Shown: positions 13,509 through 46,183 of the stretch, in pieces
Position numbering within the stretch: position 1 is the first letter of the stretch
How the letters are laid out: each line of letters opens with the position of its first letter
NCBI GenBank assembly: GCA_947628235.1
Contig: CANQZC010000005.1
Span: forward strand, 1,460-65,459
Reading direction: 5' to 3'
DNA length: 64,000 bases
Source: an uncultured Bacilli bacterium
GTDB lineage: Bacteria > Bacillota_I > Bacilli_A > RF39 > UBA660
The notes under the pieces: generated by a model
The model's input: only the letters and a program-made list of their open reading frames with translations
Databases searched by the model: none
Told to the model about the DNA's origin: nothing
Position numbers and translations under genes: made by a program

Positions 13509-14312
13509 TTAAGACTCTTTTTCGGGATCTTGTTGTCCCATGAATTCTCGATATCTTGGAAGAATTTCTTCGGCAGGACCAATCTCCATAAGATTACCAT
13601 CATTTAACCATAATACTTCATCACAAAGAGATGCGATAGTATCCAAATTATGAGATACAATTAAAACCGTCCTATTTTCATCCGAAATAAGTTCTTTCAT
13701 CTTGTTGTAACTTTTCGCTTTAAATTGAGCATCTCCAACGCTTAATACTTCATCAATTAACATGATATCTGTCTCTAATATCGCCGTAATCGCAAACGCT
13801 AATTTAGAGTACATTCCAGAAGAATAAGTTTTTACTGGTTTATACATAAACTTTCCAATATCGGCAAAATCAATAATCTCCTGTTCTTTTTCACGAATCT
13901 GTTCTTCGGAGAAACCTAATAACATTCCGGATAGATAAATGTTCTCTTTTCCGGTTAGTTTCTTATTAAATCCGACTCCAATAGAAAGAAGGGAAATTGT
14001 ATTTCCATGTAAATCAATCTTTCCTTCGTCTGGTGAAAAGATTCCGGCAATTGCTCTTAACATGGTTGATTTTCCAGATCCATTCTTTCCGATGATACCT
14101 AGAATTTTTCCTTTTTCTACTTCAAAACTAACACCTTTTAAAGCACGAAAGAGTTCTACCCTAGAACCTAGTTTCGTCCAAGAAGCACGAATAGATGTCT
14201 TTTTAAGACCACGATAAGTGACATGAAGATTCTTAACGGTAATCGCTATCTCTTTTTTAGATTTAGAAGAGACAATTTCACTATTAGTTTCCATTTCATC
14301 CTTCTTTTTCAT
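13509..14312 (-). CDS. ABC transporter ATP-binding protein, TagH/polysaccharide-export type
   Basis: Walker A GKNGSGKST, signature YSSGM, Walker B LIDEVLSVGD. It is coupled to an ABC-2 permease with overlapping stop/start at 14312. Confidence 0.85.
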   Translation of the reverse strand: MKKKDEMETNSEIVSSKSKKEIAITVKNLHVTYRGLKKTSIRASWTKLGSRVELFRALKGVSFEVEKGKILGIIGKNGSGKSTMLRAIAGIFSPDEGKIDLHGNTISLLSIGVGFNKKLTGKENIYLSGMLLGFSEEQIREKEQEIIDFADIGKFMYKPVKTYSSGMYSKLAFAITAILETDIMLIDEVLSVGDAQFKAKSYNKMKELISDENRTVLIVSHNLDTIASLCDEVLWLNDGNLMEIGPAEEILPRYREFMGQQDPEKES

Positions 14313-15130
14313 TAAATCACCTTCGCATAACTATTTTCATTCTTATGGATGACATGAACCCCTATCATACATAAGACAACACCGATAAGTCCCCAAATTC
14401 CAAGTAAGCCTAAATGAGGTAGATTTCCTTCTAGGAGAACCACTCGGAGTTCATTCATAATAAAGGCAATAGGATTTACCTTTAAAAGAAGAACTACTAA
14501 ACTTGGATGCTTCTTTAACTTCTTTTGAATATTATAGAAGACACCAGATAAATAGAAAACCATTTTAAGACCAATATTTGTCAAATTGGATAAATCATTC
14601 AAAGTAACTCCAAAATGCATCAAAATCATTCCCATACCAAATGTAAGAACATAAAGGACAACAAAGATTGGAATCGCTAATAACATCGTCCAAGAAAATG
14701 GTACTCTTTGACAAATCATTAAAACAAGACAAATGAGTAAAGAAATTCCCATTTTAAATAGATAAGTAAAAGACTTTGATAACAATAAAATATATTTTGG
14801 AATATATACTTTTGTAACCAAATCTCGATTATTAATAATGAGTTTCACACTACCCGTAATCATCCGATTAAAAAATTCCCAAGCAGTAAGTCCGATAAAT
14901 ACAAAAGAAGCAAAATACTTTTCGTTATTATCGAATACAACACCAAAAACGAATGTATAAATAAGCATAAAACAAACTGGTTCAATAATCCACCATAGCC
15001 AGTTTAAATAAGAATCAGCTACCTCGCTTTTTAATTCGGCTTTGGCTGAATAAATCGCATACTTATAATATTTTTTGATGTTATTAAAAAATTTTTTCAA
15101 GATATCCCTACTTTCCAAAATAAAATACAC
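14312..15130 (-). CDS. ABC-2 type permease, TagG/polysaccharide-export type
   Basis: 272 aa with about 6 TM. It has the typical N-terminus ...AELKSEVADSYLNWLWWIIEP. Confidence 0.8.
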   Translation of the reverse strand: MYFILESRDILKKFFNNIKKYYKYAIYSAKAELKSEVADSYLNWLWWIIEPVCFMLIYTFVFGVVFDNNEKYFASFVFIGLTAWEFFNRMITGSVKLIINNRDLVTKVYIPKYILLLSKSFTYLFKMGISLLICLVLMICQRVPFSWTMLLAIPIFVVLYVLTFGMGMILMHFGVTLNDLSNLTNIGLKMVFYLSGVFYNIQKKLKKHPSLVVLLLKVNPIAFIMNELRVVLLEGNLPHLGLLGIWGLIGVVLCMIGVHVIHKNENSYAKVI

Positions 15131-15713
15131 CTAATATTTTTGAAAATCGATTTAAAATTTCATTGCTCTTCTGCATCGCAATATTTTTCTCTAAAGCTTT
15201 CCCACCAATCGTTAAAGCGGCTACCGTTGCTGTTGTAAAAAGCGAACAAATAAGAAGAGATATTCCCCACATTTCCGAGATAGAACTAGCGATAACTACA
15301 CCTGCGGAACCAGAAATAATTCCACAGATATCACCAATGACATCTTGGCAGAAACTAGAAACTTTATTCGCATTTCTCTTTAAAAGAACAGCTACCTTTG
15401 CTGATTTAATCCCTCTAGAACTCATGGAATGGAAAGGTGCTTCACTCGCTGTTGCAACAGCCATTCCTACCATATCAAAAAGGACCCCGATAGCAACAAA
15501 CAAGAAAACAATGACACAACTAATGAGAAGATTCGCTTTCTTTAACGCTACCTCAGAAAAGAAAGAAAAGGAAAAAGAGATAGCGAACGCTAAACAAGTA
15601 AGTTCTAAAACCCACTTATAGTTTTCCCTCTTTTTTAACTTCTTTTCTCTTTTTATATCTTCTTGTTTTGTATTTTTTGGTTTCAAGTTAATCCCCCTTA
15701 TACACAATGACAT
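15108..15713 (-). CDS. hypothetical integral membrane protein
   Basis: 201 aa with a K-rich N-terminus and then about 4 TM. Family not recognised with confidence. Confidence 0.5.
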   Translation of the reverse strand: MSLCIRGINLKPKNTKQEDIKREKKLKKRENYKWVLELTCLAFAISFSFSFFSEVALKKANLLISCVIVFLFVAIGVLFDMVGMAVATASEAPFHSMSSRGIKSAKVAVLLKRNANKVSSFCQDVIGDICGIISGSAGVVIASSISEMWGISLLICSLFTTATVAALTIGGKALEKNIAMQKSNEILNRFSKILGVFYFGK

Positions 15714-15740
15714 TCTACCGGATTTTCAGAATTTTGTCAA

Positions 15741-16691
15741 TTATTTATCACAAAGGTCTTCCTCTGTCTCTTTGACGATATAGATTGGTCTTTTCTTTGC
15801 TTCTAAGTAAGTTTTTGCTAAATACTCACCCATAATTCCCGTACAGAAAAGTTGAATTCCACTAAGAAAAAAGAGAATACAAATCATCGAAGGCCAACCA
15901 GCAACAGGATCTCCCCAAATTAGTGTTTTCACAATAATCACAATAATCGCAATGAAAGAAACAAAGCAAAAGAAAATTCCTAAGATTGCGGAAATCAATA
16001 AAGGTGTCGTTGAAAATCCAACAATGCCTTCCATGGCGTATGCAAAAAGTTTTGGAAAATTAAATTTCGTTGTTCCTGCTACCCTTTCTTGGTTTTCATA
16101 TTCAATCCATTTGGTATCGAATCCGACAAAACTAAAAAGCCCTTTCGAATATCGATTATACTCTTTAGCCGATAAAATCGCATCTACCATTCTTCTTTTC
16201 ATCAAGCGATAATCTCGCGCGCCAGGTACCATCTCAACATTAGACATCTTCGCAATAATCTTGTAAAACCATCCTGTAAATATTTTTCGAAAGAAAGAAT
16301 ATCCATGTCTACTGACACTTTTTGCTGCTACACAGTCATATCCTTCTTCTTTGATAGAACGATACATTTCTTTTAAAAGAGCGGGAGGATCTTGTAAATC
16401 AACATCCATAGTAGTGACATAATCTCCCTTAGAAGCCTCTAATCCAGCATACATAGCCGCTTCTTTTCCAAAGTTTCTAGAAAAAGAAATATAGTGAACA
16501 GACTTATCTTGTCTAGCTAATTCTCGCATCTTTTCAATTGTCGTATCTTTTGATCCATCATTGACATAGATAATTTCATAATGAATATTGGAAATTTCTT
16601 TTAAAACTTTTGTTACTTCCTCATAAAATGGAAGAATATTTTCTTCCTCATTCATACAAGGAACTACAATCGATATTAATTCTTTTTTCAT
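15741..16691 (-). CDS. GT2 polyprenol-phosphate glycosyltransferase (GtrB/CsbB-like)
   Basis: ISIVVPCMNEE, VNDGSKDTT and DVDLQDPP (DXD) motifs are followed by two C-terminal TM helices. This is the classic GtrB/ArnC architecture. Confidence 0.85.
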   Translation of the reverse strand: MKKELISIVVPCMNEEENILPFYEEVTKVLKEISNIHYEIIYVNDGSKDTTIEKMRELARQDKSVHYISFSRNFGKEAAMYAGLEASKGDYVTTMDVDLQDPPALLKEMYRSIKEEGYDCVAAKSVSRHGYSFFRKIFTGWFYKIIAKMSNVEMVPGARDYRLMKRRMVDAILSAKEYNRYSKGLFSFVGFDTKWIEYENQERVAGTTKFNFPKLFAYAMEGIVGFSTTPLLISAILGIFFCFVSFIAIIVIIVKTLIWGDPVAGWPSMICILFFLSGIQLFCTGIMGEYLAKTYLEAKKRPIYIVKETEEDLCDK

Positions 16692-16692
16692 A

Positions 16693-18192
16693 CTACTCCC
16701 TCATTTGATATAAAACATATTTAAAATGGATATTTTCATACACTTGATAAACAACATCTATTACCTCATAATTCTCATGAAGATAAGGAACAGAAATGGT
16801 ATTTTCATTTATATATTCTTTCATCCGTAAGATGACAAACTGCGTATGTTTTTCTTTGATTGCTAAATCCTGAGCATCTTTATTCTCTGGATAGGCTTCA
16901 TATTTAATATTTATTTTTTCAAAATATTTCTCGGTCGGTAAAATACCTAACACAGTATAAAAACCACCATCTAGTTTGCCATAATTTAATACGGTTGGAT
17001 TCTCATAAGCAGACATAATCTCAGCAAATCGAAACTGCGCTAAAGACTCTTTTTTGGTTCCAATGAAATAGGTATTTGGACTTACTAGATAAACCATTCC
17101 CCAAAAGAAAGGAAAAAGTAAGATAACCCAATACCTAGTTGGTAATTTTGGAATGGATAAATGCGCTACAAAAATACCAAAGAAAATTGTAAAAGAAGCC
17201 ATGACATAAAAATAGTAAGCATAGTTCTTTAGTCCAATAAAGTTAAAGAGAAAAGTACTAAATAACAAGATGAAAAAAGATATCTTTTTTCCTTTTAGTA
17301 AGACTCTTTTATCTTTGAGAACACCTATCATACCAACGACGAGAGAAAAACTATATAAAGCACTCTTCTTGCCGTTCGTTACCAAAATTTCTCCTAATTT
17401 TTGAATTCTTTCGAATAATGAAACAGTAAGTTCCTGTGCAGGATAAAGAAAAATATTTAAATAAAAATAGTCTTCCCATAGATCTTTTAAAGCACCATGA
17501 ACTCCAAAATAAAGAAGAATTGGAATACTAACCGTAAGAAGTCCTAAAAAATAACAAACTCCCATTCGTAAAAATAGATTCCATTTTTTCTTTTTCAGTA
17601 ATAAAAAACTAATAATAAGGACAAACCCAATCCAAAAACCTAAGAGAATATATTTCGTCCATAGAAGAATTCCTACTAGAATTCCTTCCGTATAGAAGAG
17701 AAAATCATTTTTTTGTAAGTAAGAATCTTGATTCATTAACTTTAGAAAGTGATAGATACTAATCGCATAAAACGGTAGCATCAATTCCTCTACACTTCCC
17801 CCATGAACAAAAGATGGCATTGTCAGTAAAATCGCTATCACAAACAAAGAAGAAAGATAAAAATGTTCTTCTTTTCCATATAACTTTAAAATCTTATAAA
17901 AGAAGTAGAGGAAAATCGTAAAAGCAAGTACTTCTATTAAAAAGATGCCCAAGAATGTTCGATTGGAAATCAAGTATCCAATTCCATAAACAACATATAG
18001 AATAGGACCTTTCTGTTCAAATAGATCACGATATGGGACCATTCCATTCATAAGTCCCTTCCCCATCGTGAAGAAAGCATTCGCATCTACCCAATCATTC
18101 ATAGGATATAGTGGCGAAGATTTTGTTGCTATCCATAAAAAAAGAAACGAAATACATAATGAATAAATAATTACTTTTCTATTGTTTTTCAT
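16693..18192 (-). CDS. polytopic GT-C-like glycosyltransferase, paralog 1
   Basis: At least 11 TM with a C-terminal soluble domain. The first loop is conserved (NDWVDANAFFTMGKGLMNGMVPYRDLFEQKGPILY). The ORF-track start is GTG, so ATG 18192 (MKNNRKV) was chosen by analogy with the paralog. Confidence 0.6.
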   Translation of the reverse strand: MKNNRKVIIYSLCISFLFLWIATKSSPLYPMNDWVDANAFFTMGKGLMNGMVPYRDLFEQKGPILYVVYGIGYLISNRTFLGIFLIEVLAFTIFLYFFYKILKLYGKEEHFYLSSLFVIAILLTMPSFVHGGSVEELMLPFYAISIYHFLKLMNQDSYLQKNDFLFYTEGILVGILLWTKYILLGFWIGFVLIISFLLLKKKKWNLFLRMGVCYFLGLLTVSIPILLYFGVHGALKDLWEDYFYLNIFLYPAQELTVSLFERIQKLGEILVTNGKKSALYSFSLVVGMIGVLKDKRVLLKGKKISFFILLFSTFLFNFIGLKNYAYYFYVMASFTIFFGIFVAHLSIPKLPTRYWVILLFPFFWGMVYLVSPNTYFIGTKKESLAQFRFAEIMSAYENPTVLNYGKLDGGFYTVLGILPTEKYFEKINIKYEAYPENKDAQDLAIKEKHTQFVILRMKEYINENTISVPYLHENYEVIDVVYQVYENIHFKYVLYQMRE

Positions 18193-18254
18193 AAACTCCC
18201 ACTGCTTCAAGTATACCACATATACGCTTTCGTTTCAATCATTCCAAAAACCAC

Positions 18255-19754
18255 TCATCTATTTTTTTGAAATAAATAATAATCCGCTAATATGGTTTCA
18301 TACTTTTGTGTATGTTCCTTCACTAGATGGTAATTTTCTAAAAGAAAAGGAAGATACTGATCTGATAATTTTTCTCCATGTTCTAGTCTAAAAATAACAT
18401 AATCTACTCGTTTCGAAGCAATCGCTTCTCTTTGAGAATCTAAATTTTCAGGAAATACTTGGTAATTTATATTAATTTTAGAAAAATATTTTTCGGTCGG
18501 TAAACTTCCTGATGTGGTATAAAAACCTCCATCAATTCCTCCATAGTAAAGAAGCGTACTTCCTTCCTCCATATCTTTTAAAAATTCGTACTGAGCATAG
18601 TCCTCTTTTTTCCAAGAAAGATAAGGAATATTATCATTAACCGCATAAATATAAGAAAAAAGAAGTGGAATGATAAAAATAAGTAAACTATTTTTTTCTA
18701 AGTTTTCCTTTTCTAAGTACTCGGCAATCCATAACATACCAAAAATACAAAATGGAAAAGCTATTAAGAAATAATATCGATAACTAACACACCCTAGATA
18801 GAGAAAGAAAAGAAGAAAGAAAAACGCTAGTGGAAATATCCATTTTCTTTTCGAAGATAGAATTTTATTCTCTTTCCAAATAAAGAGTATCCCTAATAGG
18901 AGAAAAACACTATAGACAAGATGTTTTTGAAAGTTGGTAGTTATTAGCGTATAAATAATTCCTAATTTTGTTAAGAAAGATGTCTCTGCCATAGAAGAAG
19001 CATGATAAAGAAAAATATTTAAATAGAAATAATCTTCCCATAGATCTTTTAAGGCCCCATGAACTCCGAAATAAAGAAGAACGAGAAGAGTAACGAAAAA
19101 CATTCCTAGGAAAAAAGAAAGGAGAAAAGATAGTAGTTCCCTTCCCTTTTTTTCTTTGATGTAAAGACAAAAGAAGAAAAGGCCAAAGAAAATCCAAAAT
19201 CCTAAGAAAGTATATTTCATCCAAAGAATGATTCCGGCTACCAATCCTTCGATAAAAAAGATTTTGTTATTTGTTTTCAAATCATGATTATCCTTTAATA
19301 AAGAAAGAAAATGATAAATTCCTAAAAGACTGAAAGGAACCGCAAACTCCTCTACACTTCCTCCATGAAAAAAAGATCTCATAGAGAAGAAAACAGACGC
19401 AAAAAGAGGCGCTAATAAAAAGAAACTGTTTTCTTTCTGATATAATTTTAAAATTTTATAGAAAAGGCATAATGTCGTCGTAAAAGAAAATACTTCTAAT
19501 AAAAAGATGCCAAAGAAAGTTCGGTTGGAAATCAAATAACCAATTCCGTAGATGAGATAAAGAATTGGTCCTTTCTGCTCAAATAAATCACGATATGGAA
19601 CCATTCCATTCATAAGTCCCTTCCCCATCGTGAAGAAAGTATTCGCATCGCCCCAATCATTTAGGGAATAAAGAAACGAAGACTTTGTTGCAATCATTAG
19701 AAAAAGAAATGCTAAAAAGAAAGAATATCCAAAAATTAATAATTTCTTTTTCAT
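18255..19754 (-). CDS. polytopic GT-C-like glycosyltransferase, paralog 2
   Basis: 499 aa with the same architecture. Long identical stretches are shared with paralog 1 (FFTMGKGLMNGMVPYRDLFEQKGPILY; GVHGALKDLWEDYFYLNIFLY). RBS AGGTGA. Confidence 0.6.
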   Translation of the reverse strand: MKKKLLIFGYSFFLAFLFLMIATKSSFLYSLNDWGDANTFFTMGKGLMNGMVPYRDLFEQKGPILYLIYGIGYLISNRTFFGIFLLEVFSFTTTLCLFYKILKLYQKENSFFLLAPLFASVFFSMRSFFHGGSVEEFAVPFSLLGIYHFLSLLKDNHDLKTNNKIFFIEGLVAGIILWMKYTFLGFWIFFGLFFFCLYIKEKKGRELLSFLLSFFLGMFFVTLLVLLYFGVHGALKDLWEDYFYLNIFLYHASSMAETSFLTKLGIIYTLITTNFQKHLVYSVFLLLGILFIWKENKILSSKRKWIFPLAFFFLLFFLYLGCVSYRYYFLIAFPFCIFGMLWIAEYLEKENLEKNSLLIFIIPLLFSYIYAVNDNIPYLSWKKEDYAQYEFLKDMEEGSTLLYYGGIDGGFYTTSGSLPTEKYFSKININYQVFPENLDSQREAIASKRVDYVIFRLEHGEKLSDQYLPFLLENYHLVKEHTQKYETILADYYLFQKNR

Positions 19755-19770
19755 CTTATCACCTAAAAAT

Positions 19771-19800
19771 AGTATAACATGTTTCTAAAGCCTTTGACAA
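19771..19800 (-). promoter_or_regulatory. putative promoter of the GT-C/GT2 operon
   Basis: Minus strand reads TTGTCA (19800-19795), 18-nt spacer, TATACT (19776-19771). It lies directly after the ncRNA terminator. Confidence 0.5.
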
Positions 19801-19805
19801 GGCAC

Positions 19806-19827
19806 AAAAAAAAGGACAAAGTCCTTT
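19806..19827 (-). terminator. intrinsic terminator of the ncRNA unit
   Basis: Minus strand reads AAAGGAC-UUU-GUCCUUU followed by a U-run (8 T in total). Confidence 0.85.
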
Positions 19828-20409
19828 ATTCACTACTTAAATGGCTATTAATATAGTTAACTTTGCGCCATAGGTCAAGCAGAATTTCTCTAGTTTCCAC
19901 ATCACGTTACCATGGTTGCGGTTCCCCTTTAAGAAAACTAATACATCGTTTCCGAATGTATGGCTTGATTACCACTCAGTACGCACTGCAATCCTACATT
20001 ACATGACACTCTAGGAGTTTTCCTCACCAACTGTCCATTGTTAATTCTTTTTTGCAATAGGAGTTTCAAATTGCGATACTTAACTGATTCTAGCTAAAAA
20101 CCGGCTAAGTTTGTTCAATTATTCCCTCATATCACGCAAGACAAGCTACACTACCCATAACTATGCGCCACACGGTAGGTTCACGCCTTATCTGTACTCT
20201 ATCAATGGTAGAACACAACAATAAGGTCTCCATGAATGCTGGGTCATGATCGTATGCCATTACGGTTGCCCAACACTCTACCTTTCAGCATCCACCCCAA
20301 ACTGGGCGTAAGAAGCAAACACCAAAAGTTTCACAGATGTGCTCTTTAACAGCTTTTTAATTCTGTCTTCACAATAGACATTATTGACTAGAATAATGTG
20401 CCATCAACA
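19806..20409 (-). ncRNA. large (about 600 nt) structured non-coding RNA, class unassigned
   Basis: No ORF of 60 aa or more in any frame across 19755-20518. The region is visibly richer in G+C than its flanks and has its own promoter and terminator. Many stable helices are present, including a GAAA-capped stem at 19961-19941, a 10-bp helix 20295-20286/20241-20232, a 9-bp hairpin 20217-20193 and an 8-bp helix 19940-19933/19898-19891. Confidence 0.7.
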
Positions 20410-20415
20410 AGTAAC

Positions 20416-20444
20416 ATTTTAGCAAATTTAACAGAATTTGTCAA
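20416..20444 (-). promoter_or_regulatory. near-consensus sigma-A promoter driving the ncRNA
   Basis: Minus strand reads TTGACA (20444-20439), exactly 17-nt spacer, TAAAAT (20421-20416). Confidence 0.8.
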
Positions 20445-20518
20445 ATTTATACTATTCTATGCACTTCTGAAAAATATATTTCAAAAATCTTTTTCCATTC
20501 TTATCTAAAGGATGGTTT

Positions 20519-21256
20519 TTAAAATTGAAAGTCAAAGATATTCGTTTGTTTTTGATAACAGTTTTTTAATTGTTCCATAATTTCTTTCGAAGTATCTTCA
20601 CTATAGTGAAGACCATCGGCGGTTCCAAATCCATTTTCCTGTAAATAAGTATATGTGTCACAATAAAAGATATTTTCTTCTTGAATAGAATCTACAATTT
20701 CTTGATTAAAGTTTTCAATTGCTTCATTCGTAGTCGTGGCTTTTCCCTTACGAGGCCCTTTTTTATGCATTTCCAAATCTACGGGATTGACAGAGACATA
20801 AAATACATTATGATCTTGCCATTTTTCTTTTAATTTTTGAATATAAGAAGCATAGGTTTTCGCATCGCATATTTTTTTATTATCTAATTTTTGAACTCGT
20901 ATTAAATCATTTACCCCAAGATTGATAAAAATAGAAAAGTGCTCATCGGGATATTCTTGAATAAGTTTATCTACTTCTTTTTCCGCCGTTTCCCAAAGAT
21001 AATTACAAGTAACTCCATCCTTAGAAATAAAAAAGATATTAGGTTCTTCTACGACTTCACTGACATCGACAGTTCTAGAGTCCCCAATCACAATAAATTT
21101 ATCTGTTAGATAAATAGATGACTCCTCCACTTTCGCATCTACGCCTTTATCTAGAGATGGTACTTTCGAATCTTCTAGATGGAAAAAATAAGCAGCTATA
21201 CTAACTAGTAAGACAAAGAAAAAACTGCCAAGAATTCGTTTCATAAAATCATCCAC
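20519..21256 (-). CDS. secreted or membrane-anchored SGNH/GDSL-family hydrolase
   Basis: N-terminal TM, then SGNH blocks: VIGDSRT (block I), LGVNDL (block III), DGLHY (block V). Confidence 0.8.
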   Translation of the reverse strand: MDDFMKRILGSFFFVLLVSIAAYFFHLEDSKVPSLDKGVDAKVEESSIYLTDKFIVIGDSRTVDVSEVVEEPNIFFISKDGVTCNYLWETAEKEVDKLIQEYPDEHFSIFINLGVNDLIRVQKLDNKKICDAKTYASYIQKLKEKWQDHNVFYVSVNPVDLEMHKKGPRKGKATTTNEAIENFNQEIVDSIQEENIFYCDTYTYLQENGFGTADGLHYSEDTSKEIMEQLKNCYQKQTNIFDFQF

Positions 21257-21429: not shown

Positions 21430-21864
21430 TTAGCGTTTTTTTGAAAAAACAATAAATTTACTAAGAAGATAGTTTCCCACAATGACAACTACCTGAGCAA
21501 CAAGCGTCCAAAAAATAACTTGAATATTTCCATCTTGCTTTAAATGAGTAATAAAAAGCCAAAGAAGAAAAGATTCCATCAAAAGAGTTACTACTCGAGA
21601 AGAAACAAAAAGAGAAATTTCATGGAAAATTTTCTTACTTTTGCTTTGAAAGACAAAACTTCGATTCGTTACATACGCAAAAAGAACAGAAAGTATCCAA
21701 GAAAGAACAACAGAAATCTGTAGTTCTATAGGATTTTTCGCATCTAAAAAAGTAAATAATAAGACATATTTCGTAGCTAACGAAACTAAAGTAGTTAAAA
21801 CACCAATCACTAAATAGCGAAAAATTTCTTCGTATTTATGAATTACTTCTTTTATCCATTTCAT
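21430..21864 (-). CDS. GtrA-family membrane protein (putative lipid-linked sugar flippase)
   Basis: The start is moved to MKWIKEV (ATG 21864), giving 144 aa and 4 TM. It has FRYLVIGVLTTLVSL and NRSFVFQS motifs typical of GtrA/GtcA. Confidence 0.75.
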   Translation of the reverse strand: MKWIKEVIHKYEEIFRYLVIGVLTTLVSLATKYVLLFTFLDAKNPIELQISVVLSWILSVLFAYVTNRSFVFQSKSKKIFHEISLFVSSRVVTLLMESFLLWLFITHLKQDGNIQVIFWTLVAQVVVIVGNYLLSKFIVFSKKR

Positions 21865-21868
21865 TGTT

Positions 21869-22957
21869 TTAACCTTTCTTTTTAGGACTACTCTTTTTCT
21901 TCTTTTCTTCTTTTTCAGAAATATCATTATGATTATGATCAAATACTACATCGGTTTTAAGCGCAAAGATAAGTACACAAAAAAGTAAAATACCATAGAG
22001 AATATATCCTAATTTAGCGTCCTTTAAGACATAGACTAAAGAAGCTCCTGCAAATAAAGCCGTTGCTAAATAGATGATTAATACGGTTGCTCTTTGACTT
22101 AAATGTCTTCTCAATAATTGATGATGAATATGCATCTTATCCGGAGTAGAAATACTCTCTCCTTTTAACTTTCTTCGAATAATCGCAAATAAGGTATCAG
22201 AGATAGGAATCGTTAAAAGTAAAAGAGGTACGATGATAGAAGTCATCATGACATTCTTAAATCCTAATAAAGTAATTACGGCAATAATAAATCCTAAGAA
22301 CATGGATCCAGAATCACCCATAAAGATACTGGCAGGATAAAAATTATGAAATAAAAATCCTAAACACGAACCAACAAGGATGAAAGATAAAACAAACGCT
22401 AGTCCATATTCTCCCTTACAAGCTGCAATAATTCCAATCGTAAGAAAGAAAATCGTCGAGATTCCCCCTGCTAATCCATCTAATCCATCAATTAAATTAA
22501 TACAATTAATACATCCTAAAATAAAGAATATCGTGATTGGATAAGCAAAGTATCCAAAATCAATATAAATATGAAAAGCATCAATATTTTTTAATAAAAT
22601 GCCGCCATAAAAAACCACAATTAAAGCAGCAATCAATTGTCCAACAAACTTATGCGAAGCTTTTAACGGTTTGATATCATCCATAACTCCTACTAGTACA
22701 ATCACAAAACTTCCTATTAAAATAGAGTTCATCTGTGCTGTCGCACTACCAAATAACATATATCCTAATAAGAAACCACCATAAATTCCTAGTCCTCCTA
22801 GTCGAGGAATGGGATGAGTATGAACCTTTCTAGCATTCGGAATATCGAGGGCCCCTACATGCTCTGCTACTTTTCGAATAAAAGGAATTGTCATTGCTAC
22901 AAATAAGCAAGGAATCGCAATCATCGAAAAAATTTGTAAAATAAGTCCTTGATTCAT
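21869..22957 (-). CDS. undecaprenyl-phosphate GlcNAc-1-phosphate transferase (TagO/WecA, MraY superfamily)
   Basis: 362 aa with about 10 TM. Motifs include DIPNARKVHTHPIPRLGG, MDDIKPL, NLIDGLDGLAGG and MGDSGSMFLGF. Confidence 0.85.
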   Translation of the reverse strand: MNQGLILQIFSMIAIPCLFVAMTIPFIRKVAEHVGALDIPNARKVHTHPIPRLGGLGIYGGFLLGYMLFGSATAQMNSILIGSFVIVLVGVMDDIKPLKASHKFVGQLIAALIVVFYGGILLKNIDAFHIYIDFGYFAYPITIFFILGCINCINLIDGLDGLAGGISTIFFLTIGIIAACKGEYGLAFVLSFILVGSCLGFLFHNFYPASIFMGDSGSMFLGFIIAVITLLGFKNVMMTSIIVPLLLLTIPISDTLFAIIRRKLKGESISTPDKMHIHHQLLRRHLSQRATVLIIYLATALFAGASLVYVLKDAKLGYILYGILLFCVLIFALKTDVVFDHNHNDISEKEEKKKKSSPKKKG

Positions 22958-24008: not shown

Positions 24009-24036
24009 AAAAAAGAACCTTTATAGGTTCATTTTT
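24009..24036. terminator. bidirectional terminator between convergent genes
   Basis: A-run, GAACCU-UUAU-AGGUUC, then a U-rich tail. The stop codon of the minus-strand gene (24021-24023) sits in the loop. Confidence 0.6.
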
Positions 24037-25325
24037 CTTTCTATTTTTCTTTTTTTCGCAAAGAGTAAAACAAGGAAGAAGAGAAGGAAAATAACACATC
24101 CAGATAAAATCATAGTAACAAAGAAAAATCTCTTTTCTAAACTTTCTATCTCTTTCATATCTTGTACTTGAAATCTTTGAAGAGTTCTTTCTTCTTCATC
24201 ATAGGTATACCAATTTTCTTCTCCTGTTTCAATATTGATTCCATAAATTAAAGGATAGTTAGAATTACTTGAACGATAAGTGGGAATTTTTAAAGAATCG
24301 ATAGAAACTTCTCCTTTTGCTTCATAGCCTTCTGGAATTTCTTCTTTCGGTGTTAAGGTAACTATCGTAATTCCATTAAATGAAGTTTCAATGTAAGGCG
24401 TATAACTGCCATCTTCTTCCATTTTATAAAAGCCAACTTCCCCTTCTGGATTCTTTAGGGCAACTAACCGATATCCTGTAATATCCGATTCAAAAATAGG
24501 TGCTTCTTCTTCTCCAAAGAAAGTCGTTGTCTCTGTAAAAGTGGAAGGAACAGATAAGCCTTCTGTTTTTCTAACGACATTATATTCTTCTCCATCGACT
24601 GTTACGACAATAGGATTTAACTCTTTGACATGAATTCGAATTTTATATTCTTTGGTACTTCCATTTTCTGCCGTAACACGAATCGTAAACTTGTTATCTC
24701 CTTCTGATAATAGTTTCGTTCCCGTTCCCGAAATACTAGCTTTAGAATCTTCCTTAGATGCTTTGATGGTGACAGACTCTGTTCCATTTTCTACTTCTAG
24801 AGAATATTCTAAAGTATTTTTGTCAAATTTAGGAGTCAATTCATATCCTTCTACAGATAAACTCTTTAAGTTATTATTTTTAGAATAACTAGCTTCTATC
24901 TCGGCTTTGGTTTTTACATTAAAAGTATAACTACCATTCGTAACGGATAAATACTTTTCAGAATAGTTCATGACCTCAGAATTGGCAATAGATACTTTAG
25001 CGCTTCCAGATTTGATGGCTTCAAAGGTAGCTGTATATGTTTTTGTTTTAATATTTGAACCGGATGTAACTCCTACGGAGTTTGTTCTTCCCTCTAGAGT
25101 AGAACTTACAAATTTTAATCTAGCGGTATCATATTTTAAATCAAACTCCCAAGCTCCTAATGGATCTCCTGAGGAAATGGTTATCGTTACTTTTACTTTC
25201 TCTCCTACCAATACGGTTTTTGGTGATCCTGTAACGGTAATTTTAGCGCTTGCTCCGAAAACCGTATCTATCTTAAAGAAGAGACAACTAAATAAGACTA
25301 GAAAAAGAAATATATTTTTTTTCAT
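24021..25325 (-). CDS. cell-surface protein: signal peptide, cohesin-like domain, cadherin-like beta-sandwich domain, C-terminal TM anchor
   Basis: The cohesin-like segment is KITVTGSPKTVLVGEKVKVTITISSGDPLGAWEFDLKYDTARLKFVSS. The cadherin-like segment is NNLKSLSVEGYELTPKFDKNTLEYSLEV...NKFTIRVTAENGSTKEYKIRIHV. The C-terminal TM is FFFVTMILSGCVIFLLFFLVLLF, followed by basic residues. Confidence 0.7.
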   Translation of the reverse strand: MKKNIFLFLVLFSCLFFKIDTVFGASAKITVTGSPKTVLVGEKVKVTITISSGDPLGAWEFDLKYDTARLKFVSSTLEGRTNSVGVTSGSNIKTKTYTATFEAIKSGSAKVSIANSEVMNYSEKYLSVTNGSYTFNVKTKAEIEASYSKNNNLKSLSVEGYELTPKFDKNTLEYSLEVENGTESVTIKASKEDSKASISGTGTKLLSEGDNKFTIRVTAENGSTKEYKIRIHVKELNPIVVTVDGEEYNVVRKTEGLSVPSTFTETTTFFGEEEAPIFESDITGYRLVALKNPEGEVGFYKMEEDGSYTPYIETSFNGITIVTLTPKEEIPEGYEAKGEVSIDSLKIPTYRSSNSNYPLIYGINIETGEENWYTYDEEERTLQRFQVQDMKEIESLEKRFFFVTMILSGCVIFLLFFLVLLFAKKRKIERKMNL

Positions 25326-25336
25326 TTTATCACTCC

Positions 25337-27415
25337 TTATTTTTGACTAATGTTACTACTACCTAGTATATGTTTTTGAACTTTTAATAAGTCTAGGATG
25401 GTTATTTTTCCATCTTTGCTTGGATCAGCAGCTTCCATACTAGCGCCAGTTAATTTAGAAGAACCTAAGATATGTTTTTGAAGTTGTAGTAAGTCTAAAA
25501 TAGAAATTTTTCCATCTCCAGAAACATCTCCATAAAGAACAACTGTCAAAGTTTTCTTATCTTCTCCACTTTGTATCGTTACTTGATCGCCAGTAACTAA
25601 AGACTCTGTCGTTTTCTCTTTTTTATTATTGATAATGGTTACTTTCGCAGTCGCAGATACCGATAGGATTTGCGTTGTTATATCAGATGCTTTTTCACCA
25701 AATGTTAAATCTACAATATAATCATTTCTCGTTGTGATTTTTGCTGCTGCAAGAATCTCTTCGACAGTTGGATAGGTGACATCATCCTCAAATAGTTTTT
25801 CATTTCTAACAATGATTACTTCATAAGTTTTGGTATCTCCATTTTGTGCTTTTACTTTTAGGGAAATAGTATTATCCCCTACTTCTAAGGAAGTCTCTCC
25901 GGTTCCTGTTACCGTTGCAGCTGAATTAATCGTTTTAGCTGTTACTTTTACTTTTTCTACGCCATAATCGACATAAACTTTATAACTTGTGTTAGAAGAA
26001 GAGAATCCTTCTACTTTAGTACCATCAATCGCAATCTCTTTTAGTAAATTATTTGGATTTCCCTTGGAAGGAAGAGATGTTTTTTCAGGCATATTTTTAT
26101 AGACAGGAATATGAAATGTAAAAGCAGATTCAATTAATCCCGAAGCTACATACGAATGATAGGTTGTGGTTGCTTCAGAAGAAGGTGCTTGAATATTCTG
26201 CATATATTGATGCGTATAGTTTTTATGGACATTTTCAATTCCTTTTGATTCCGCATATTTCTGAACAGTATTCCATTTTTTAAAATAACTAGTATCTTGC
26301 CCTGTCGTAATATAAGTATCAGCGATAAATTCAGCTCCTCCAATAATCGCTTTTTCTTCCGATGTCCATGGACGACCAAAAGAAGCTGTTTTATTAGGAA
26401 GACCTTCCGCAGCATACACTAATCCTCTAGCAGTCGATCCTCCCACACCAGAAGTAGCGCCGATATTATAGAAGTTATAGACTCCTTCATAAGTCTTTCC
26501 ATCATAAGTAAATTTTTTTCCACTAACCGCCGCCGAAGCAGTAGTTCCTGCCCCTACTTCCTGCCTTGATAATGCCGCTAAATAAATAGGATTAACACCA
26601 GTCTTCTCTGCCGCTTTTATAAAGAGATCAGAGAATTTAGCAATATAAGCATTTCCTAATAAAGTTTGAACTCCTTCTAATGTCTGTAGTTCTTTATTGT
26701 AAGAAAGGGCTTCAAATTGGAAAATATACATATCAATTAAGAAATTTCTGGGATCCATATAATAAGCAATCGTCTCTTGATTCGCGGCATACCAATTACT
26801 TCCATCATAAACAGTAAATTTATCTTTTTCCCAATCATAGTTTTCAGATTTGGTAGAAAGATATCCTTGCGTAGAAGAAGAAGTGGATTGAATTAAACTT
26901 TTTTTACCAGAATCTTCATTATCTACAGCAGTATTAAAATCAAGTCCAGTATCAATAGCAACAAATTGCCAAGATGGATGAGCCTCTTTTAAAATGGCTA
27001 AAGACTCCCAATAACTTTCTGGAAATCCTGCTTCAGTAAATTCTTTTTGAAGTTCTTCACTGACTTCCGCAATATGAATATTATCCGTACATAGCCATCC
27101 TTTATAATTGGTATTTCTAGTTTTTACATTGACATAAGAAAAGGTTGTTTTACATTCACTACCATTTCCTTTGGTAGGTGCGGGAACTGGTTCTGTGGTC
27201 GTAATGACCGTAACAGGATCACCCGTATCTACCCAATAAACATTATCTACTAATTTTTTAAAAGTTGTATCTTTATAGAAGCAATTTCCCGTCGAACCAC
27301 TCCTTAAAGAACAGGTTCCTGTAGCAATAAATTTTCCTTCATAATTTGCTTCTAAAGAAAGTGGTGATAAAAAGAACAAAAAGAAAAGTACAAAAACTAA
27401 AAAATATCGTTTCAT
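25337..27415 (-). CDS. secreted peptidoglycan hydrolase (LytD-type N-acetylglucosaminidase) with cadherin-like domain and C-terminal dockerin
   Basis: Signal peptide. LytD/COG4193-like region (YYMDPRNFL...IFQFEALSY; YLAALSRQEVGAG; YNFYNIGA). Cadherin-like module (NNLLKEIAIDGTKVEGFSSSNTSYKVYV...). Two dockerin Ca-binding repeats (DVSGDGKISILDLLQLQKHILG and DPSKDGKITILDLLKVQKHILG). Confidence 0.75.
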   Translation of the reverse strand: MKRYFLVFVLFFLFFLSPLSLEANYEGKFIATGTCSLRSGSTGNCFYKDTTFKKLVDNVYWVDTGDPVTVITTTEPVPAPTKGNGSECKTTFSYVNVKTRNTNYKGWLCTDNIHIAEVSEELQKEFTEAGFPESYWESLAILKEAHPSWQFVAIDTGLDFNTAVDNEDSGKKSLIQSTSSSTQGYLSTKSENYDWEKDKFTVYDGSNWYAANQETIAYYMDPRNFLIDMYIFQFEALSYNKELQTLEGVQTLLGNAYIAKFSDLFIKAAEKTGVNPIYLAALSRQEVGAGTTASAAVSGKKFTYDGKTYEGVYNFYNIGATSGVGGSTARGLVYAAEGLPNKTASFGRPWTSEEKAIIGGAEFIADTYITTGQDTSYFKKWNTVQKYAESKGIENVHKNYTHQYMQNIQAPSSEATTTYHSYVASGLIESAFTFHIPVYKNMPEKTSLPSKGNPNNLLKEIAIDGTKVEGFSSSNTSYKVYVDYGVEKVKVTAKTINSAATVTGTGETSLEVGDNTISLKVKAQNGDTKTYEVIIVRNEKLFEDDVTYPTVEEILAAAKITTRNDYIVDLTFGEKASDITTQILSVSATAKVTIINNKKEKTTESLVTGDQVTIQSGEDKKTLTVVLYGDVSGDGKISILDLLQLQKHILGSSKLTGASMEAADPSKDGKITILDLLKVQKHILGSSNISQK

Positions 27416-28016: not shown

Positions 28017-28032
28017 ATCATCACCACTAACA

Positions 28033-28254
28033 TTATACCATATTCTTTAATAAATTCGTAATGATATCAAAAGTATCCATGGCCTGAGAAAAACGATCGC
28101 TTGGTCGTAGATGATAATCTCTTCTCATGGCTTCTTTAAATTCTTGAAAACTTTCTGGATGACGAATCAGGCGTTTATACCAAATACTATTTTCGCGAAG
28201 ATATTTTTTATATTTGGGATCTTCTCTTAATTTTATCTGTAATTCATAACTCAT
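28033..28254 (-). CDS. YlbE-like small protein
   Basis: 73 aa. The pattern LREDPKYKKYLRENSIWYKRLIRHPESFQEFKE, together with its position next to the ylbD-like gene and rsmD (ylbH), matches the B. subtilis ylb cluster. Confidence 0.5.
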   Translation of the reverse strand: MSYELQIKLREDPKYKKYLRENSIWYKRLIRHPESFQEFKEAMRRDYHLRPSDRFSQAMDTFDIITNLLKNMV

Positions 28255-28592
28255 TAATCATCGAAGTGTTGATAGATAGGTTTTGGTTCATAGGTATTCT
28301 TTTCTACTTCTTTCGTCGTTACTAAATCTCCTAATACGCCTAATACTCTTTGAATACTTTGAATGGATTCTTGAATCGAATCTAAATTTAAATTCTTAAA
28401 GTATTCCATCCTATCTAGTTTTCCTTTCTCTTCTTTTTTCTCTTGCGTTAGATACTCTTTCCATACTTCATTTTCTTCCCCATACATATCATACATTTCA
28501 TAAAACTTTTGCCAAGTCATCGTATCTTCTTTCACATAACGCACTAAAGAGGGATTCTTTTTGACAAACTCTTTAAAAGATTCTTTGGACAT
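28254..28592 (-). CDS. YlbD-like protein
   Basis: The start is moved to MSKESFKEFVKKNPSLV (ATG 28592, AGGTGG RBS), which removes the overlap with parC. FKEFVKKNP...TWQKFYEMYDMYGEENEVWKEY resembles the YlbD family. Confidence 0.5.
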   Translation of the reverse strand: MSKESFKEFVKKNPSLVRYVKEDTMTWQKFYEMYDMYGEENEVWKEYLTQEKKEEKGKLDRMEYFKNLNLDSIQESIQSIQRVLGVLGDLVTTKEVEKNTYEPKPIYQHFDD

Positions 28593-28635
28593 AGTACCAC
28601 CTATTTTAGTATATGAAAAAAGATAGTTTTTTGAA

Positions 28636-33172: not shown

Positions 33173-33604
33173 TTATCCAACCGTCGTACAGACATAAGTA
33201 GCACAACTACTATCCTCAACAAAAGTAAATTGATAATTTCCAAAAAACTTACTATTTTCTTTTTCCGTCTCTGGTTTGGTAGCATAATAAGTAACTGTAA
33301 TAGCATGAGAAGCATAATCTTCAATGATATTATCTCTTACAACCTCTTCTTTTACTAGTCCGGCACAGATTAATTGTTGAGCACATATCTTTTTTGGTTC
33401 TTCCGTTGTAACTGGTAAATAAGAAATATTTTGTTGCGCAAAATCATAAGCAGCATTTAATACCGTATCAATATTAACACTATCGCGGTCTTTTCTAGCA
33501 TCCCGAATACTTCTAGAAACGGATGGAAAAGTAACTAACGCAATGAGTCCTAAAAGGACTAAAACTGCTAATATCTCTACTAAAGTAAAACCATTTTCTT
33601 TCAT
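33173..33604 (-). CDS. type IV pilin-like protein (prepilin N-terminal cleavage/methylation motif)
   Basis: MKENG|FTLVEILAVLVLLGLIALV shows the class III signal peptide with Glu at +5. Two Cys pairs lie in the C-terminal half. Confidence 0.8.
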   Translation of the reverse strand: MKENGFTLVEILAVLVLLGLIALVTFPSVSRSIRDARKDRDSVNIDTVLNAAYDFAQQNISYLPVTTEEPKKICAQQLICAGLVKEEVVRDNIIEDYASHAITVTYYATKPETEKENSKFFGNYQFTFVEDSSCATYVCTTVG

Positions 33605-34077
33605 TTTTCCTCCTCAAACACTTCATAGAGACGGTAGTAATAAACCCCATCATATTCACCATGTTGATCTTGATACTTTTCTTTCATACTAGGAGTAACA
33701 TAGACGATATAGACATACGATGCATCCATATCATAGTATTGATCCAGTCTTGGATTTTTAATACGGTCTTCTAAAACTCCCTCTTCATGAAGAAAACTAA
33801 GAGACAATCTAACTTCACAAATATTGTTTCTAGCATCACTTCCTGGATAGGTAATGGTTTGACATCCATCTTCACTAACTACATCAGGCAGAGGTACTTG
33901 ACTCGTGGGTACATACGCTATCGCACTATTTAAAATACTAGAGCGTTGAACTTCTTCGGCATGTTCTTTATTTTTTCGTGTAGATACATCCATCGCTTCC
34001 ATAGAGGCAATGGCAAGTAGAGCAAGAATGGTAATGACTGCTAGTAACTCTACTAAAGTAAACCCGTTATCTTTCAT
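33601..34077 (-). CDS. type IV pilin-like protein
   Basis: MKDNG|FTLVELLAVITILALLAIA. There is a 4-nt ATGA overlap with the downstream pilin gene. Confidence 0.8.
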   Translation of the reverse strand: MKDNGFTLVELLAVITILALLAIASMEAMDVSTRKNKEHAEEVQRSSILNSAIAYVPTSQVPLPDVVSEDGCQTITYPGSDARNNICEVRLSLSFLHEEGVLEDRIKNPRLDQYYDMDASYVYIVYVTPSMKEKYQDQHGEYDGVYYYRLYEVFEEEK

Positions 34078-38846: not shown

Positions 38847-38872
38847 TTCCTATCCACAAAAAAAGATAAAAA

Positions 38873-39130
38873 TTATCTTTTTGATTCTAAATATCGATAC
38901 TCATTTTCCCATACGGTTCCATCGGGAGCAACATAATAATCTTGGGTATCATCATATCGTTCATAATCTTTGGCACTATCCCAAAAATTACCGTCTTTAT
39001 CCTGATATGGTTCTTCATTTCCTACATTACTAACACTCGTTCTAGAATTTTTAGGTCCTACGGTAAAAAGAACTAATACAAATAACCCCAAAATAACAAC
39101 CGAATAAGTAATCTTTCTACTTTGACTCAT
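38873..39130 (-). CDS. small membrane-anchored protein with two copies of the DGxxW..EY repeat
   Basis: 85 aa with TM YSVVILGLFVLVLFTV, then DKDGNFWDSAKDYERY and APDGTVWENEYRYLE. Confidence 0.6.
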   Translation of the reverse strand: MSQSRKITYSVVILGLFVLVLFTVGPKNSRTSVSNVGNEEPYQDKDGNFWDSAKDYERYDDTQDYYVAPDGTVWENEYRYLESKR

Positions 39131-39140
39131 AGTAACCCTC

Positions 39141-39383
39141 CTATCGTACTTTTTCTACATTCTCTGTTGTAGGCGCTAAAGCCTTAGAGATGGCTCTTTT
39201 CACTTGATTTCGAAAATCTTCTTCCCGTAATCTTTTATAGCCACTATATCCTTCTTTGGTTACTACCGTAAGTAACCACATTCCCGCAAATACTTCTTTA
39301 TTGGGATTAGCATGTTGAACACCAGAAGAAACAGCTCTACTTGAAACTAAACATGGAAAATTCACATACCTTATACTGTTCAT
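39141..39383 (-). CDS. hypothetical small protein
   Basis: 80-aa ORF with an AGGAGAG RBS upstream of its ATG. No recognisable family. Confidence 0.4.
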   Translation of the reverse strand: MNSIRYVNFPCLVSSRAVSSGVQHANPNKEVFAGMWLLTVVTKEGYSGYKRLREEDFRNQVKRAISKALAPTTENVEKVR

Positions 39384-39440
39384 ATTTTAATCTCTCCTAT
39401 TTTCAATATAATCATACCACAAATTGAAAAAATACACAAC

Positions 39441-39463
39441 AAAAAAAAAGTCTAAAATAGACT
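39441..39463 (-). terminator. intrinsic terminator after the 555-aa repeat protein gene
   Basis: Minus strand reads AGUCUA-UUU-UAGACU followed by U9. Confidence 0.8.
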
Positions 39464-39464
39464 C

Positions 39465-43418: not shown

Positions 43419-43939
43419 GAAACATCAATTGTCGCAAAAAGTGGAGAATATAAATATACCATCTTCACCCCGAAATCTTCATTTTCTATCAATGGTGTCG
43501 TAATAGAAATATCCAAGAAAACATAGCCAATATCCATACCATCTGTCCGTTCTTTTACTTCTGATACTTCAATCACAGGATCGGCTTTATCGACAAATTG
43601 ATATTCATATGTCTTACCATTTCCAGAATAAGTAATACTAGAGGAAGTAACCATTAATTTCTTCATCACACTATTTCCAGAAGCATCTTGGAATAAAAAG
43701 TTATATTCTCCCTTTTTTCCGGACATCTGTATTAAGGTATACTCACTTGCATCATGCGCTAATTCATCACTTAGTAATCCTTGTTGAACAATGAGTTCAC
43801 TCTTGATAGATTGTGCTAAATAATTTTCTTTAATCATCATGACAATATTGAAAAGAAATACCATAACAACCATGGATAAAGAAAAGGCTGTTAAGAGTTC
43901 TACAATTGTAAATCCTTTTTGATTTTTCATTCTACGCAC
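43415..43939 (-). CDS. minor pseudopilin (prepilin-type N-terminal motif)
   Basis: MRRMKNQKG|FTIVELLTAFSLSMVVMVFLF. Confidence 0.75.
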   Translation of the reverse strand: MRRMKNQKGFTIVELLTAFSLSMVVMVFLFNIVMMIKENYLAQSIKSELIVQQGLLSDELAHDASEYTLIQMSGKKGEYNFLFQDASGNSVMKKLMVTSSSITYSGNGKTYEYQFVDKADPVIEVSEVKERTDGMDIGYVFLDISITTPLIENEDFGVKMVYLYSPLFATIDVS

Positions 43940-44474: not shown

Positions 44475-44584
44475 AGAATTCACTCCTTGTATTGTAATTA
44501 TTACAAGATTATTATATAATATATTCAGGATAAATGCTAGTCCTAAAGAATAAAAGAACAAAAAATAAGAAGGGATTGACAAGG

Positions 44585-46180: not shown

Positions 46181-46183
46181 AAT

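Follow-up and report, generated by a model that had tools for sequence, protein, structure and literature searches.

The question raised by this locus is whether the one long gene-free gap in a 64-kb stretch of DNA from an uncultured Bacilli bacterium (the whole stretch is hereafter called the window) encodes a new class of structured RNA, an RNA of a known family, or a former protein. The gene content of the window was Bacillota-like, with genes for Gram-positive-type ParC/ParE, a SpoVB-like protein and YlbD. The source organism was no obvious extremophile. A preliminary description, made from the sequence alone, had presented positions 19806-20444 as the only long gap without an ORF, richer in G+C than its flanks, and as a transcription unit complete in itself, some 600 nt long, that belonged to an unassigned and possibly novel class of large ncRNA. 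The gap itself was found as described. The longest ORF within 19806-20444 comprised 47 aa, and the surrounding interval of 19755-20518 (764 nt) was the longest gene-free interval of the window, whose remaining gaps had small genes or a T-box leader inside. The G+C content was 0.39-0.42 over 19850-20449, compared with approximately 0.27-0.33 in the flanks.

The signals that delimit the element, and the one that follows it, were located as listed here.

20416..20444, (-) strand: sigma-A-type promoter of the element (the ole promoter below), TTGACA-17-TAAAAT with an extended -10 TG; 11/12 matches
19806..19827, (-) strand: intrinsic terminator of the element (the ole terminator below), AAAGGAC-UUU-GUCCUUU plus a U-run, with the stem at 19827-19811; from the sequence
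19771..19800, (-) strand: second promoter, of the downstream operon, TTGTCA-18-TATACT, TG-extended; 10/12 matches

The site at 20444-20416 was the top-ranking promoter-like site of the region, and the U-run of the terminator consisted of eight U. A minus-strand transcript of approximately 604 nt, starting near 20409 and ending near 19806, is predicted from these signals. Promoter, terminator and downstream promoter were all confirmed, and at the level of sequence prediction the proposed self-contained unit of ~600 nt holds. The folding energy of the sense strand was -164.6 kcal/mol (z = -2.3), versus -121.4 kcal/mol (z = -1.1) for the antisense strand.

The whole 64-kb window was scanned against Rfam 15 at the gathering threshold, and the sole matches were one T-box leader and the OLE RNA family, the latter in the gap. 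OLE (ornate, large, extremophilic) RNA is a large ncRNA of bacteria that associates with the membrane and has been studied in depth.

19825..20420, (-) strand: OLE RNA gene (ole), Rfam RF01071; covariance-model match, conserved positions and covariation

The match extended from 20420 to 19825 on the minus strand (596 nt) and covered model positions 1-616 of 616, end to end and not truncated, with 384 bits (gathering score 50) and an E value of 2.8e-109. No match to ROOL, GOLLD, HEARO, raiA, RNase P, tmRNA, 6S or SRP RNA was obtained at the gathering threshold anywhere in the window. The preliminary description had found no hallmarks of RNase P, tmRNA, SRP RNA, a T-box or a group II intron, in which it was right; OLE is the only family that matches the region. 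It had also named OLE among the candidates, without being able to assign the element to any of them; the RF01071 match supplies that assignment and rules out the unassigned class. The Rfam scan that it had put forward thus returned a significant match to a well-characterised family, the result by which it would itself have considered the element known.

When the window sequence was threaded on RF01071, 137 of the 159 consensus pairs were canonical, 14 were non-canonical and 8 were gapped. Identity was found at 204 of the 249 highly conserved (upper-case) consensus positions. The other 45 (18%) deviated mostly by G-to-A and C-to-U changes, a bias as expected in a genome of ~30% G+C, and included the palindrome CAUCGAUG, which had become CAUCUGUG. 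Unlike characterised OLE RNAs, the window RNA lacked a small hairpin of 4 bp at model positions 424-435, and its palindrome in the P4a region was degenerate. Nine related loci carried closely related OLE genes with scores of 345-390 bits. The ~600-nt element is almost certainly a full-length OLE RNA gene (ole), of a known family, in an uncultured low-G+C gut-type Bacilli-like bacterium.

Conservation of the fold was assessed among relatives. At least 119 OLE loci from representative genomes were found with the conserved OLE core motif. The window RNA and its 19 nearest relatives among the matches listed (68-88% identity) were aligned with MAFFT in a structure-blind manner (alignment A1). The Rfam structure was carried over to the alignment by way of the window row and its pairs were counted; partners slid by 1-3 columns and 500 shuffles were used as the controls. 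In these 20 sequences, 86.7% of the cells were paired, compared with 39-47% in the slid controls, and both sides had changed in 95 of the 151 pairs, compared with 37-52. The covariation score was 0.409 versus 0.08-0.135 in the slid controls, and none of the 500 shuffles attained the observed pairing and covariation values. A total of 186 columns were invariant among the 20 clade members. The collection of homologs and the covariation analysis suggested earlier revealed strong covariation of the consensus OLE fold (both sides changed in those 95 pairs), and the claim of a large, highly structured ncRNA was borne out by the OLE match together with this covariation.

The six helices that had been folded by hand in the preliminary description fared unequally. 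All six can form, with every pair canonical, and four are consensus helices in exact agreement with Rfam: the GAAA-capped bulged hairpin at 19961-19941, the 9-bp hairpin at 20217-20193, the 8-bp helix of 19940-33 with 19898-91, and the closing helix of 19968-63 with 19880-75. The other two were unsupported. Neither the 10-bp helix (20295-86 with 20241-32) nor the 7-bp helix (20311-05 with 20187-81) contained a single consensus pair or showed covariation; both sides had changed in only 1 of their 17 pairs combined, no better than in the shuffles. These two long-range helices conflict with the consensus and were rejected. Long-range pairing outside the Rfam structure was found elsewhere.

20371..20405, (-) strand: 5' arms of long-range helices, paired with 20041-20001 and 19845-19840; MFE fold and covariation

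In these helices, 83% of the cells were paired (34-52% in the slid controls) and 19 of the 33 pairs had changed on both sides; in the innermost helix of 10 bp, this was true of all 10 pairs. The helices enclose domain 1, as long-range helices do in characterised OLE RNAs, and probably represent P1, P2 and P3/P3.1 of the current literature model, with P-numbers that we infer.

A new class of large ornate ncRNA would be compatible with the missing ORF, the G+C bump, the promoter and terminator of its own and the many stable helices, all of which are generic features of large structured RNAs. Considering that the OLE model is matched over its full length with 384 bits, that the consensus pairs and conserved nucleotides of OLE are kept, that the OLE partner gene oapA is present in the window and that all relatives score as OLE, we attach next to no probability to this explanation, and it was rejected on the end-to-end RF01071 match. 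Even further from likely is a decayed protein-coding gene. Nothing apart from the missing ORF speaks for a pseudogene, whereas the longest ORF is the one of 47 aa, the changes among relatives keep base pairs and not codons, and the covariance-model match spans the whole model; this candidate was rejected on the same three grounds. The gap thus contains a member of a known RNA family, one to which annotation with Rfam would give a label in any case, and no candidate new RNA class.

With the element taken as OLE RNA, the elements to which functions have been ascribed in this family were compared with the window sequence.

19941..19961, (-) strand: P13 hairpin of 5 bp, a bulged U, 3 bp and a GAAA (GNRA) loop; exact consensus pairs
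20091..20096, (-) strand: self-complementary terminal loop of P9, UAGCUA, the proposed homodimer kissing-loop contact; loop comparison

The hairpin at 19961-19941 reads AUACA-U-UCG-GAAA-CGA-UGUAU and has the predicted architecture of P13, the OapB-binding element of OLE; the GNRA loop and the single-nucleotide bulge of P13 are needed for OapB binding (PMC7936274). In cryo-EM dimers of OLE RNA, the dimer contacts of which have been listed, the symmetrical loops of two P9 stems kiss (PMC12265935). The P9 loop contained GGCC in 74 of 101 OLEs among the matches listed and AGCU/UAGCUA in the subclade of the window. The window RNA thereby differs from characterised OLE RNAs, but as UAGCUA is a different palindrome, the self-complementarity of P9 is preserved. 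Besides this loop, the window counterparts of the cryo-EM dimer contacts were an A-rich hairpin loop, AUUAAAAAG, and the loops CGCCCAG and AAUGGCAU. The latter two (GCCCA in the case of CGCCCAG) were invariant across the clade and have the P5.1/P6.1 loop sequences. The predicted loops of the window OLE match the dimerisation loops: A-rich P4, P5.1, P6.1 and self-complementary P9. The UGAA before P5 and the AG after it were joining-region nucleotides conserved in alignment A1; in the OLE family, a kink-turn near P5 is the binding site of OapC. The stems taken as P7, P8 and P9 were present, with 16, 13 and ~35 consensus pairs, respectively.

The OLE family was described in 2006, is curated in Rfam and has 2,822 hits in GTDB in Bacillota, including gut MAG clades (PMC11332333). 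The known references are OLE RNA of Halalkalibacterium halodurans and the cryo-EM structures from Clostridium acetobutylicum and C. botulinum. With these characterised OLE RNAs the window RNA shares its length of ~600 nt, the conserved sequence blocks, the consensus secondary structure, the GNRA loop and bulge of P13, the long P9 with a self-complementary loop, the P5.1/P6.1 loop sequences and, probably, a Bacillota-type host; OLE RNA hosts belong to Bacillota and are usually anaerobes or extremophiles. Two shortened forms, 'variant 1' and 'variant 2', have been reported from the uncultured gut clades TANB77 and RF39 (Fernando and Breaker 2024, PMC11332333). The window shares with them the probable type of host, an uncultured gut Bacillota/Bacilli MAG lineage, and the apparent lack of nearby OapB and OapC genes. 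Unlike these variants, the window RNA keeps the stems taken as P7, P8 and P9 and the OapB site in P13, so that it is of the full-length type and neither variant 1 nor variant 2. Three clade members in alignment A1 (L084, L041 and L096) were without P7 or the distal part of P9. ROOL, GOLLD, HEARO and raiA resemble OLE in large size and ornate fold, and ROOL and GOLLD also in homo-oligomerisation (PMC12286853), but they have no membrane partner of the OapA type, and none of them was matched in the window.

OLE RNA and OapA almost always co-occur, and oapA is the commonest immediate downstream neighbour of ole (PMC11332333, PMC12265935). Among the matches listed, an ORF of 170-240 aa from one family lay directly 3' of OLE in 96 of the 106 loci with a readable downstream ORF. 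A profile of OapA was built from these 96 ORFs, and it matched exactly one ORF of the window.

15108..15713, (-) strand: oapA, OLE-associated membrane protein A, 201 aa; 209.5 bits, E 8.4e-64

The DxxxD motif, which was invariant in 97 of 97 OapA sequences, was present as D124-V-I-G-D128. The window protein matched 22 of the 25 positions conserved in at least 90% of the sequences and, in line with the literature on OapA, had a weak match to the CNNM domain. The gene of the obligate partner of OLE RNA is therefore present and intact, and it lies on the same strand as ole; a same-strand oapA with a DxxxD motif is a further feature in common with characterised OLE loci. Its position is unusual. 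Among the matches listed, 105 of 114 loci had an oapA that started no more than 400 nt from OLE (median 55 nt), whereas in the window it was found approximately 4.1-4.17 kb downstream of the OLE 3' end, past three genes. A separation of more than 1 kb occurred, among the matches listed, only in the window, L120, L087 and L098, which belong to one clade. The OapB and OapC genes, unlike in characterised OLE systems, were not found in the 64-kb window, to which the search was confined (domain searches, and comparison of unassigned small ORFs with PDB sequences). Both genes have been reported missing from reduced gut clades (PMC11332333).

The genes between and around ole and oapA were then assigned as follows.

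18255..19754, (-) strand: GT-C-fold membrane glycosyltransferase paralog 1, 499 aa, first gene between ole and oapA; Pfam matches of its family and AF2 fold
16693..18219, (-) strand: GT-C-fold membrane glycosyltransferase paralog 2, 508 aa; Pfam matches of its family and homology to paralog 1
15741..16691, (-) strand: GT2 polyprenyl-phosphate glycosyltransferase, PgfS/ArnC-like; PF00535 108.6 bits, PgfS model 315 bits
14312-15130, (-) strand: Wzm/TagG-like ABC-2 permease; 23-nt overlap with the end of oapA
13509-14312, (-) strand: TagH-like ATPase, following the ABC-2 permease gene and followed by folD
20519-21256, (-) strand: SGNH hydrolase, upstream of ole; domain match
21430-21942, (-) strand: GtrA-like flippase, upstream of ole; domain match
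21869-22957, (-) strand: WecA/TagO-like GT4 phosphotransferase, upstream of ole; domain match

The 499- and 508-aa proteins were 48% identical to each other and had no match in Pfam or NCBIfam, even at E values up to 10, and a profile of their family searched against PDB sequences yielded only noise. Their assignment was therefore based on Pfam matches within the family, 12 of whose 32 members matched PF13231 (PMT_2), and on a fold search. The AlphaFold (AF2) model of paralog 1 had a pLDDT of 88.3 and a pTM of 0.91, and all 20 PDB matches with E <1e-3 were GT-C enzymes (ArnT, PglB/STT3, DPY19, ALG9 and AftA), with a TMq of 0.62 for ArnT. By this model, the two inserted proteins are GT-C glycosyltransferases, in which a multi-helix membrane domain precedes an extracytoplasmic one. 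The neighbours named in the preliminary description (GT-C paralogs, SGNH hydrolase, GtrA and TagO/WecA) were all recovered. Its remark that such a context was unlike that of known large ncRNAs was half right: oapA does lie 4.1 kb downstream of ole and shares its strand, and cell-wall genes are recognised neighbours of ole, dltE and yqhY having already been listed among them as cell-wall biosynthesis genes (PMC12265935).

The same region was compared in related loci. The nearest OLE loci among the matches listed, with 88% identity, were from rabbit-gut 'uncultured Bacilli' MAGs, and other near relatives were also from animal guts. One metagenome contig, L120, had exactly the split gene order of the window, with a GT-C protein 62% identical to that of the window. 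The order of oapA, ABC-2 permease, ABC ATPase and folD was common to the window, L060 and L120. In L060 this series followed OLE with no insertion, as did oapA and the ABC-2 permease gene in L115. Between OLE and oapA, L098 carried one GT2 gene, and L087 carried a gene for a 477-aa protein, a GT2 gene and genes for two small membrane proteins of the EamA type. Glycosyltransferase genes have repeatedly entered the space between ole and oapA in this clade. A GT2-TagF-like fusion was located 3' of OLE in L055. Upstream, a TagD-like cytidylyltransferase gene was found in L120, a gene of the LtaS-type sulfatase family in L087, and a WecA-like gene in L006, L014, L063 and L087. Across this uncultured gut-Bacilli clade, ole and oapA were repeatedly embedded among TagO/WecA, TagD-like, TagF-like, LtaS-like, GtrA, GT2, GT-C and TagG/TagH genes. 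As L120 shares the split order despite a GT-C identity of just 62%, this is an old arrangement that has been maintained.

The transcription signals were also compared among the relatives. All nine related loci examined had a TTGACA -35 box within the 60 nt 5' of OLE. A GGAC-nnn-GUCC hairpin with a U-run lay 3' of OLE in L120, L023, L055, L060, L098 and L115 as well, and different hairpins followed by a U-run in L087, L006 and L014. In all ten clade loci examined, a terminator-like hairpin and U-run stood directly 3' of OLE and a TTGACA box close upstream, including in loci with an adjacent oapA. In L060, a promoter-like TTGACA box was found 3' of the OLE terminator and ahead of oapA, at a position similar to that in the window. 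The promoter and the terminator are kept at the same positions in relatives, and they are therefore more than chance matches to a consensus. The terminator after OLE and the promoter of its own in the clade loci point to ole as an independent transcription unit in this lineage. In the window, ole is predicted to be such a separate promoter-to-terminator unit and not to lie within a polycistronic cluster, unlike characterised ole genes, which are placed in a polycistronic isoprenoid/DNA-repair cluster. The cassette of GT-C, GT-C and GT2 genes between ole and oapA is situated 3' of the second promoter (19800-19771), so that oapA is the probable fourth gene of a glycosylation-exporter operon that continues into the TagG/TagH-like exporter. 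Because the GT2 gene and oapA are 27 nt apart and other gene junctions overlap, we infer a common transcript of oapA, the GT-C/GT2 genes and the exporter genes; this placement behind two GT-C genes and one GT2 gene, in an exporter operon, again sets the window apart from characterised OLE loci.

Two other explanations of this layout have to be weighed. Besides its action in trans, OLE RNA might also serve as a long 5' leader, with regulated read-through of the terminator controlling the glycosylation-oapA-exporter operon. OLE and the operon lie on the same strand, with ~70 nt from the OLE 3' end to the start codon of the first GT-C gene, and in H. halodurans ole is within one polycistronic transcript of the whole cluster (PMC12265935). 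We nevertheless consider such control improbable, as a canonical terminator with eight consecutive U separates OLE from the operon, a good promoter (10/12, TG-extended) follows it, this order of terminator and promoter is kept where oapA is adjacent (clearly in L060), and no antiterminator alternative was identified. It is more improbable still, to the point of being very hard to credit, that the window carries a non-functional OLE relic, cut off from oapA by the insertion and drifting to loss. Organisms that have no OapA are reported to carry defective ole genes in some cases (PMC11332333), and the 4.1-kb distance to oapA, the 14 non-canonical and 8 gapped consensus pairs and the 18% of conserved positions that deviate from the consensus could be read in this way. 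But oapA is intact at every invariant residue checked, the bit score is on a par with relatives that have an adjacent oapA (345-390 bits), substitutions within the clade are overwhelmingly compensatory, and the promoter and terminator are conserved. The persistence of the split arrangement in L120, where the GT-C has diverged to 62% identity, argues in the same direction, namely for an old and maintained locus. On these grounds the decayed relic was rejected, and we retain the reading of ole as a gene with its own promoter and terminator beside a separate operon that contains oapA.

By analogy with OLE of Halalkalibacterium halodurans and clostridia (PMC12265935, PMC11332333, PMC7936274, PMC9723947), the RNA would form a homodimer. 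Dimers of the four-helix membrane protein OapA would bind it and recruit it to the membrane, possibly across it, and the resulting ribonucleoprotein may aid tolerance of cold, short-chain alcohols, excess Mg2+ and poor carbon sources. In the current model of OLE, the P3 helices cross the bilayer and the complex has a role in stress tolerance (PMC12265935, PMC11332333, PMC10898510). As for the gut-Bacilli clade, the gene neighbourhood raises the tentative idea, to us on the unlikely side, that the OLE-OapA particle has a functional link to a wall polymer of the teichoic-acid type, through its synthesis, its glycosylation or its export. No paper that combines 'OLE RNA' with 'teichoic' was found in the searchable literature library, whereas a general link to cell-wall genes has already been published (PMC12265935).

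The OLE RNA of the window belongs to an already-known family, and the split of ole from oapA and the teichoic-acid-type neighbourhood are lineage-specific details. Approximately 20 years after the discovery of OLE RNA, gene neighbourhood has been a main source of clues to its biochemical function, and the split locus provides a specific and testable association of OLE with teichoic-acid-type pathways. OLE RNA has recently been proposed to cross the membrane and to sense or touch the cell wall, and the linkage, if it reflects function, would back this proposal with genomic evidence.

In the OLE RNA of the window, the long P9-like stem is capped by a terminal loop (20091-20096, minus strand) that reads UAGCUA, a palindrome, and the same loop is found in the window subclade of uncultured gut-Bacilli relatives. 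Among the OLE loci listed, this loop is GGCC in 74 of 101 OLE RNAs. The loop sequence has changed in the window subclade with its self-complementarity retained, as would be expected of a homodimer kissing loop. At positions 82-89 of the Rfam model (approximately 20332-20339 of the window, minus strand), the consensus palindrome CAUCGAUG is replaced by CAUCUGUG; most clade members have this variant in common with the window, and the palindrome is lost in all of these. These positions are taken to belong to P4a. In the literature, an OapA contact has been placed at a palindrome within or close to P4a.

The gene content between ole and oapA, the gene of the OLE partner membrane protein, was compared in the window and five relatives, and it proved to be variable within this one gut-Bacilli clade. 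Outside these loci, the distance from OLE to the oapA start had a median of 55 nt among the OLE loci listed.

Genes between ole and oapA in the window and related contigs
L060 and L115: 0 genes
L098: 1 gene, GT2
L087: 4 genes, a 477-aa protein, GT2, and two EamA-type proteins
Window (15108-19754, oapA through the first GT-C) and L120: 3 genes, GT-C, GT-C, and GT2

For the first GT-C, the public gene call P0001 (480 aa) begins 19 codons within a 499-aa ORF. The longest GtrA ORF (21430-21942, minus strand) shares 74 nt with the WecA-like gene (21869-22957, minus strand). The Pfam match of this GtrA ORF starts at residue 42, and translation of GtrA probably begins at a codon inside the ORF. At 24021-27415 (minus strand), directly flanking the glycosylation cluster, a cohesin plus cadherin-like protein (434 aa) adjoins a 692-aa protein that carries a dockerin and a SagB-like glucosaminidase region; a cohesin-dockerin pair is unexpected in a small Bacilli-like genome.

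Elsewhere in the window, a T-box leader (RF00230; 418-595, minus strand) scored 112.4 bits, where the gathering score is 93. This leader directly follows hisS (620-1930) on its downstream side, and its target gene extends past the window start. The 618 nt at 38847-39464 form one of the longest intervals that lack a large gene (1-619 and 28017-28635 are 619 nt each), contain only ORFs of 80-85 aa, and gave no match in the Rfam scan at the gathering threshold. Type IV pilus or competence-pseudopilus-type genes were also present.

Pilus- and competence-type genes of the window
33173-34077 and 43415-49069: four N-terminal-methylation-motif proteins, T2SSE ATPase, T2SSF platform protein, and A24 prepilin peptidase
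53024-55592: comEA and comEC

Eight contigs with Bacilli-type ole/oapA loci (L006, L008, L055, L072, L086, L088, L096, and L115) are recorded as 'uncultured Muribaculaceae' (Bacteroidota) or 'Roseburia sp.', labels that are probably binning or taxonomy errors. These mismatches agree with the published remark that non-Bacillota OLE matches resemble assembly artefacts.

Wall-glycopolymer genes adjoining OLE in relatives
L055:5400-7997: GT2-TagF-like (Glyphos_transf) fusion
L087:5585-7096: LtaS-type sulfatase-family protein
L120:842-1249: TagD-like cytidylyltransferase
L006:2412-3524: WecA/TagO

Because these four relatives carry teichoic-acid-type genes beside OLE, the comparison suggests that ole/oapA is tied to wall-glycopolymer loci across the clade.
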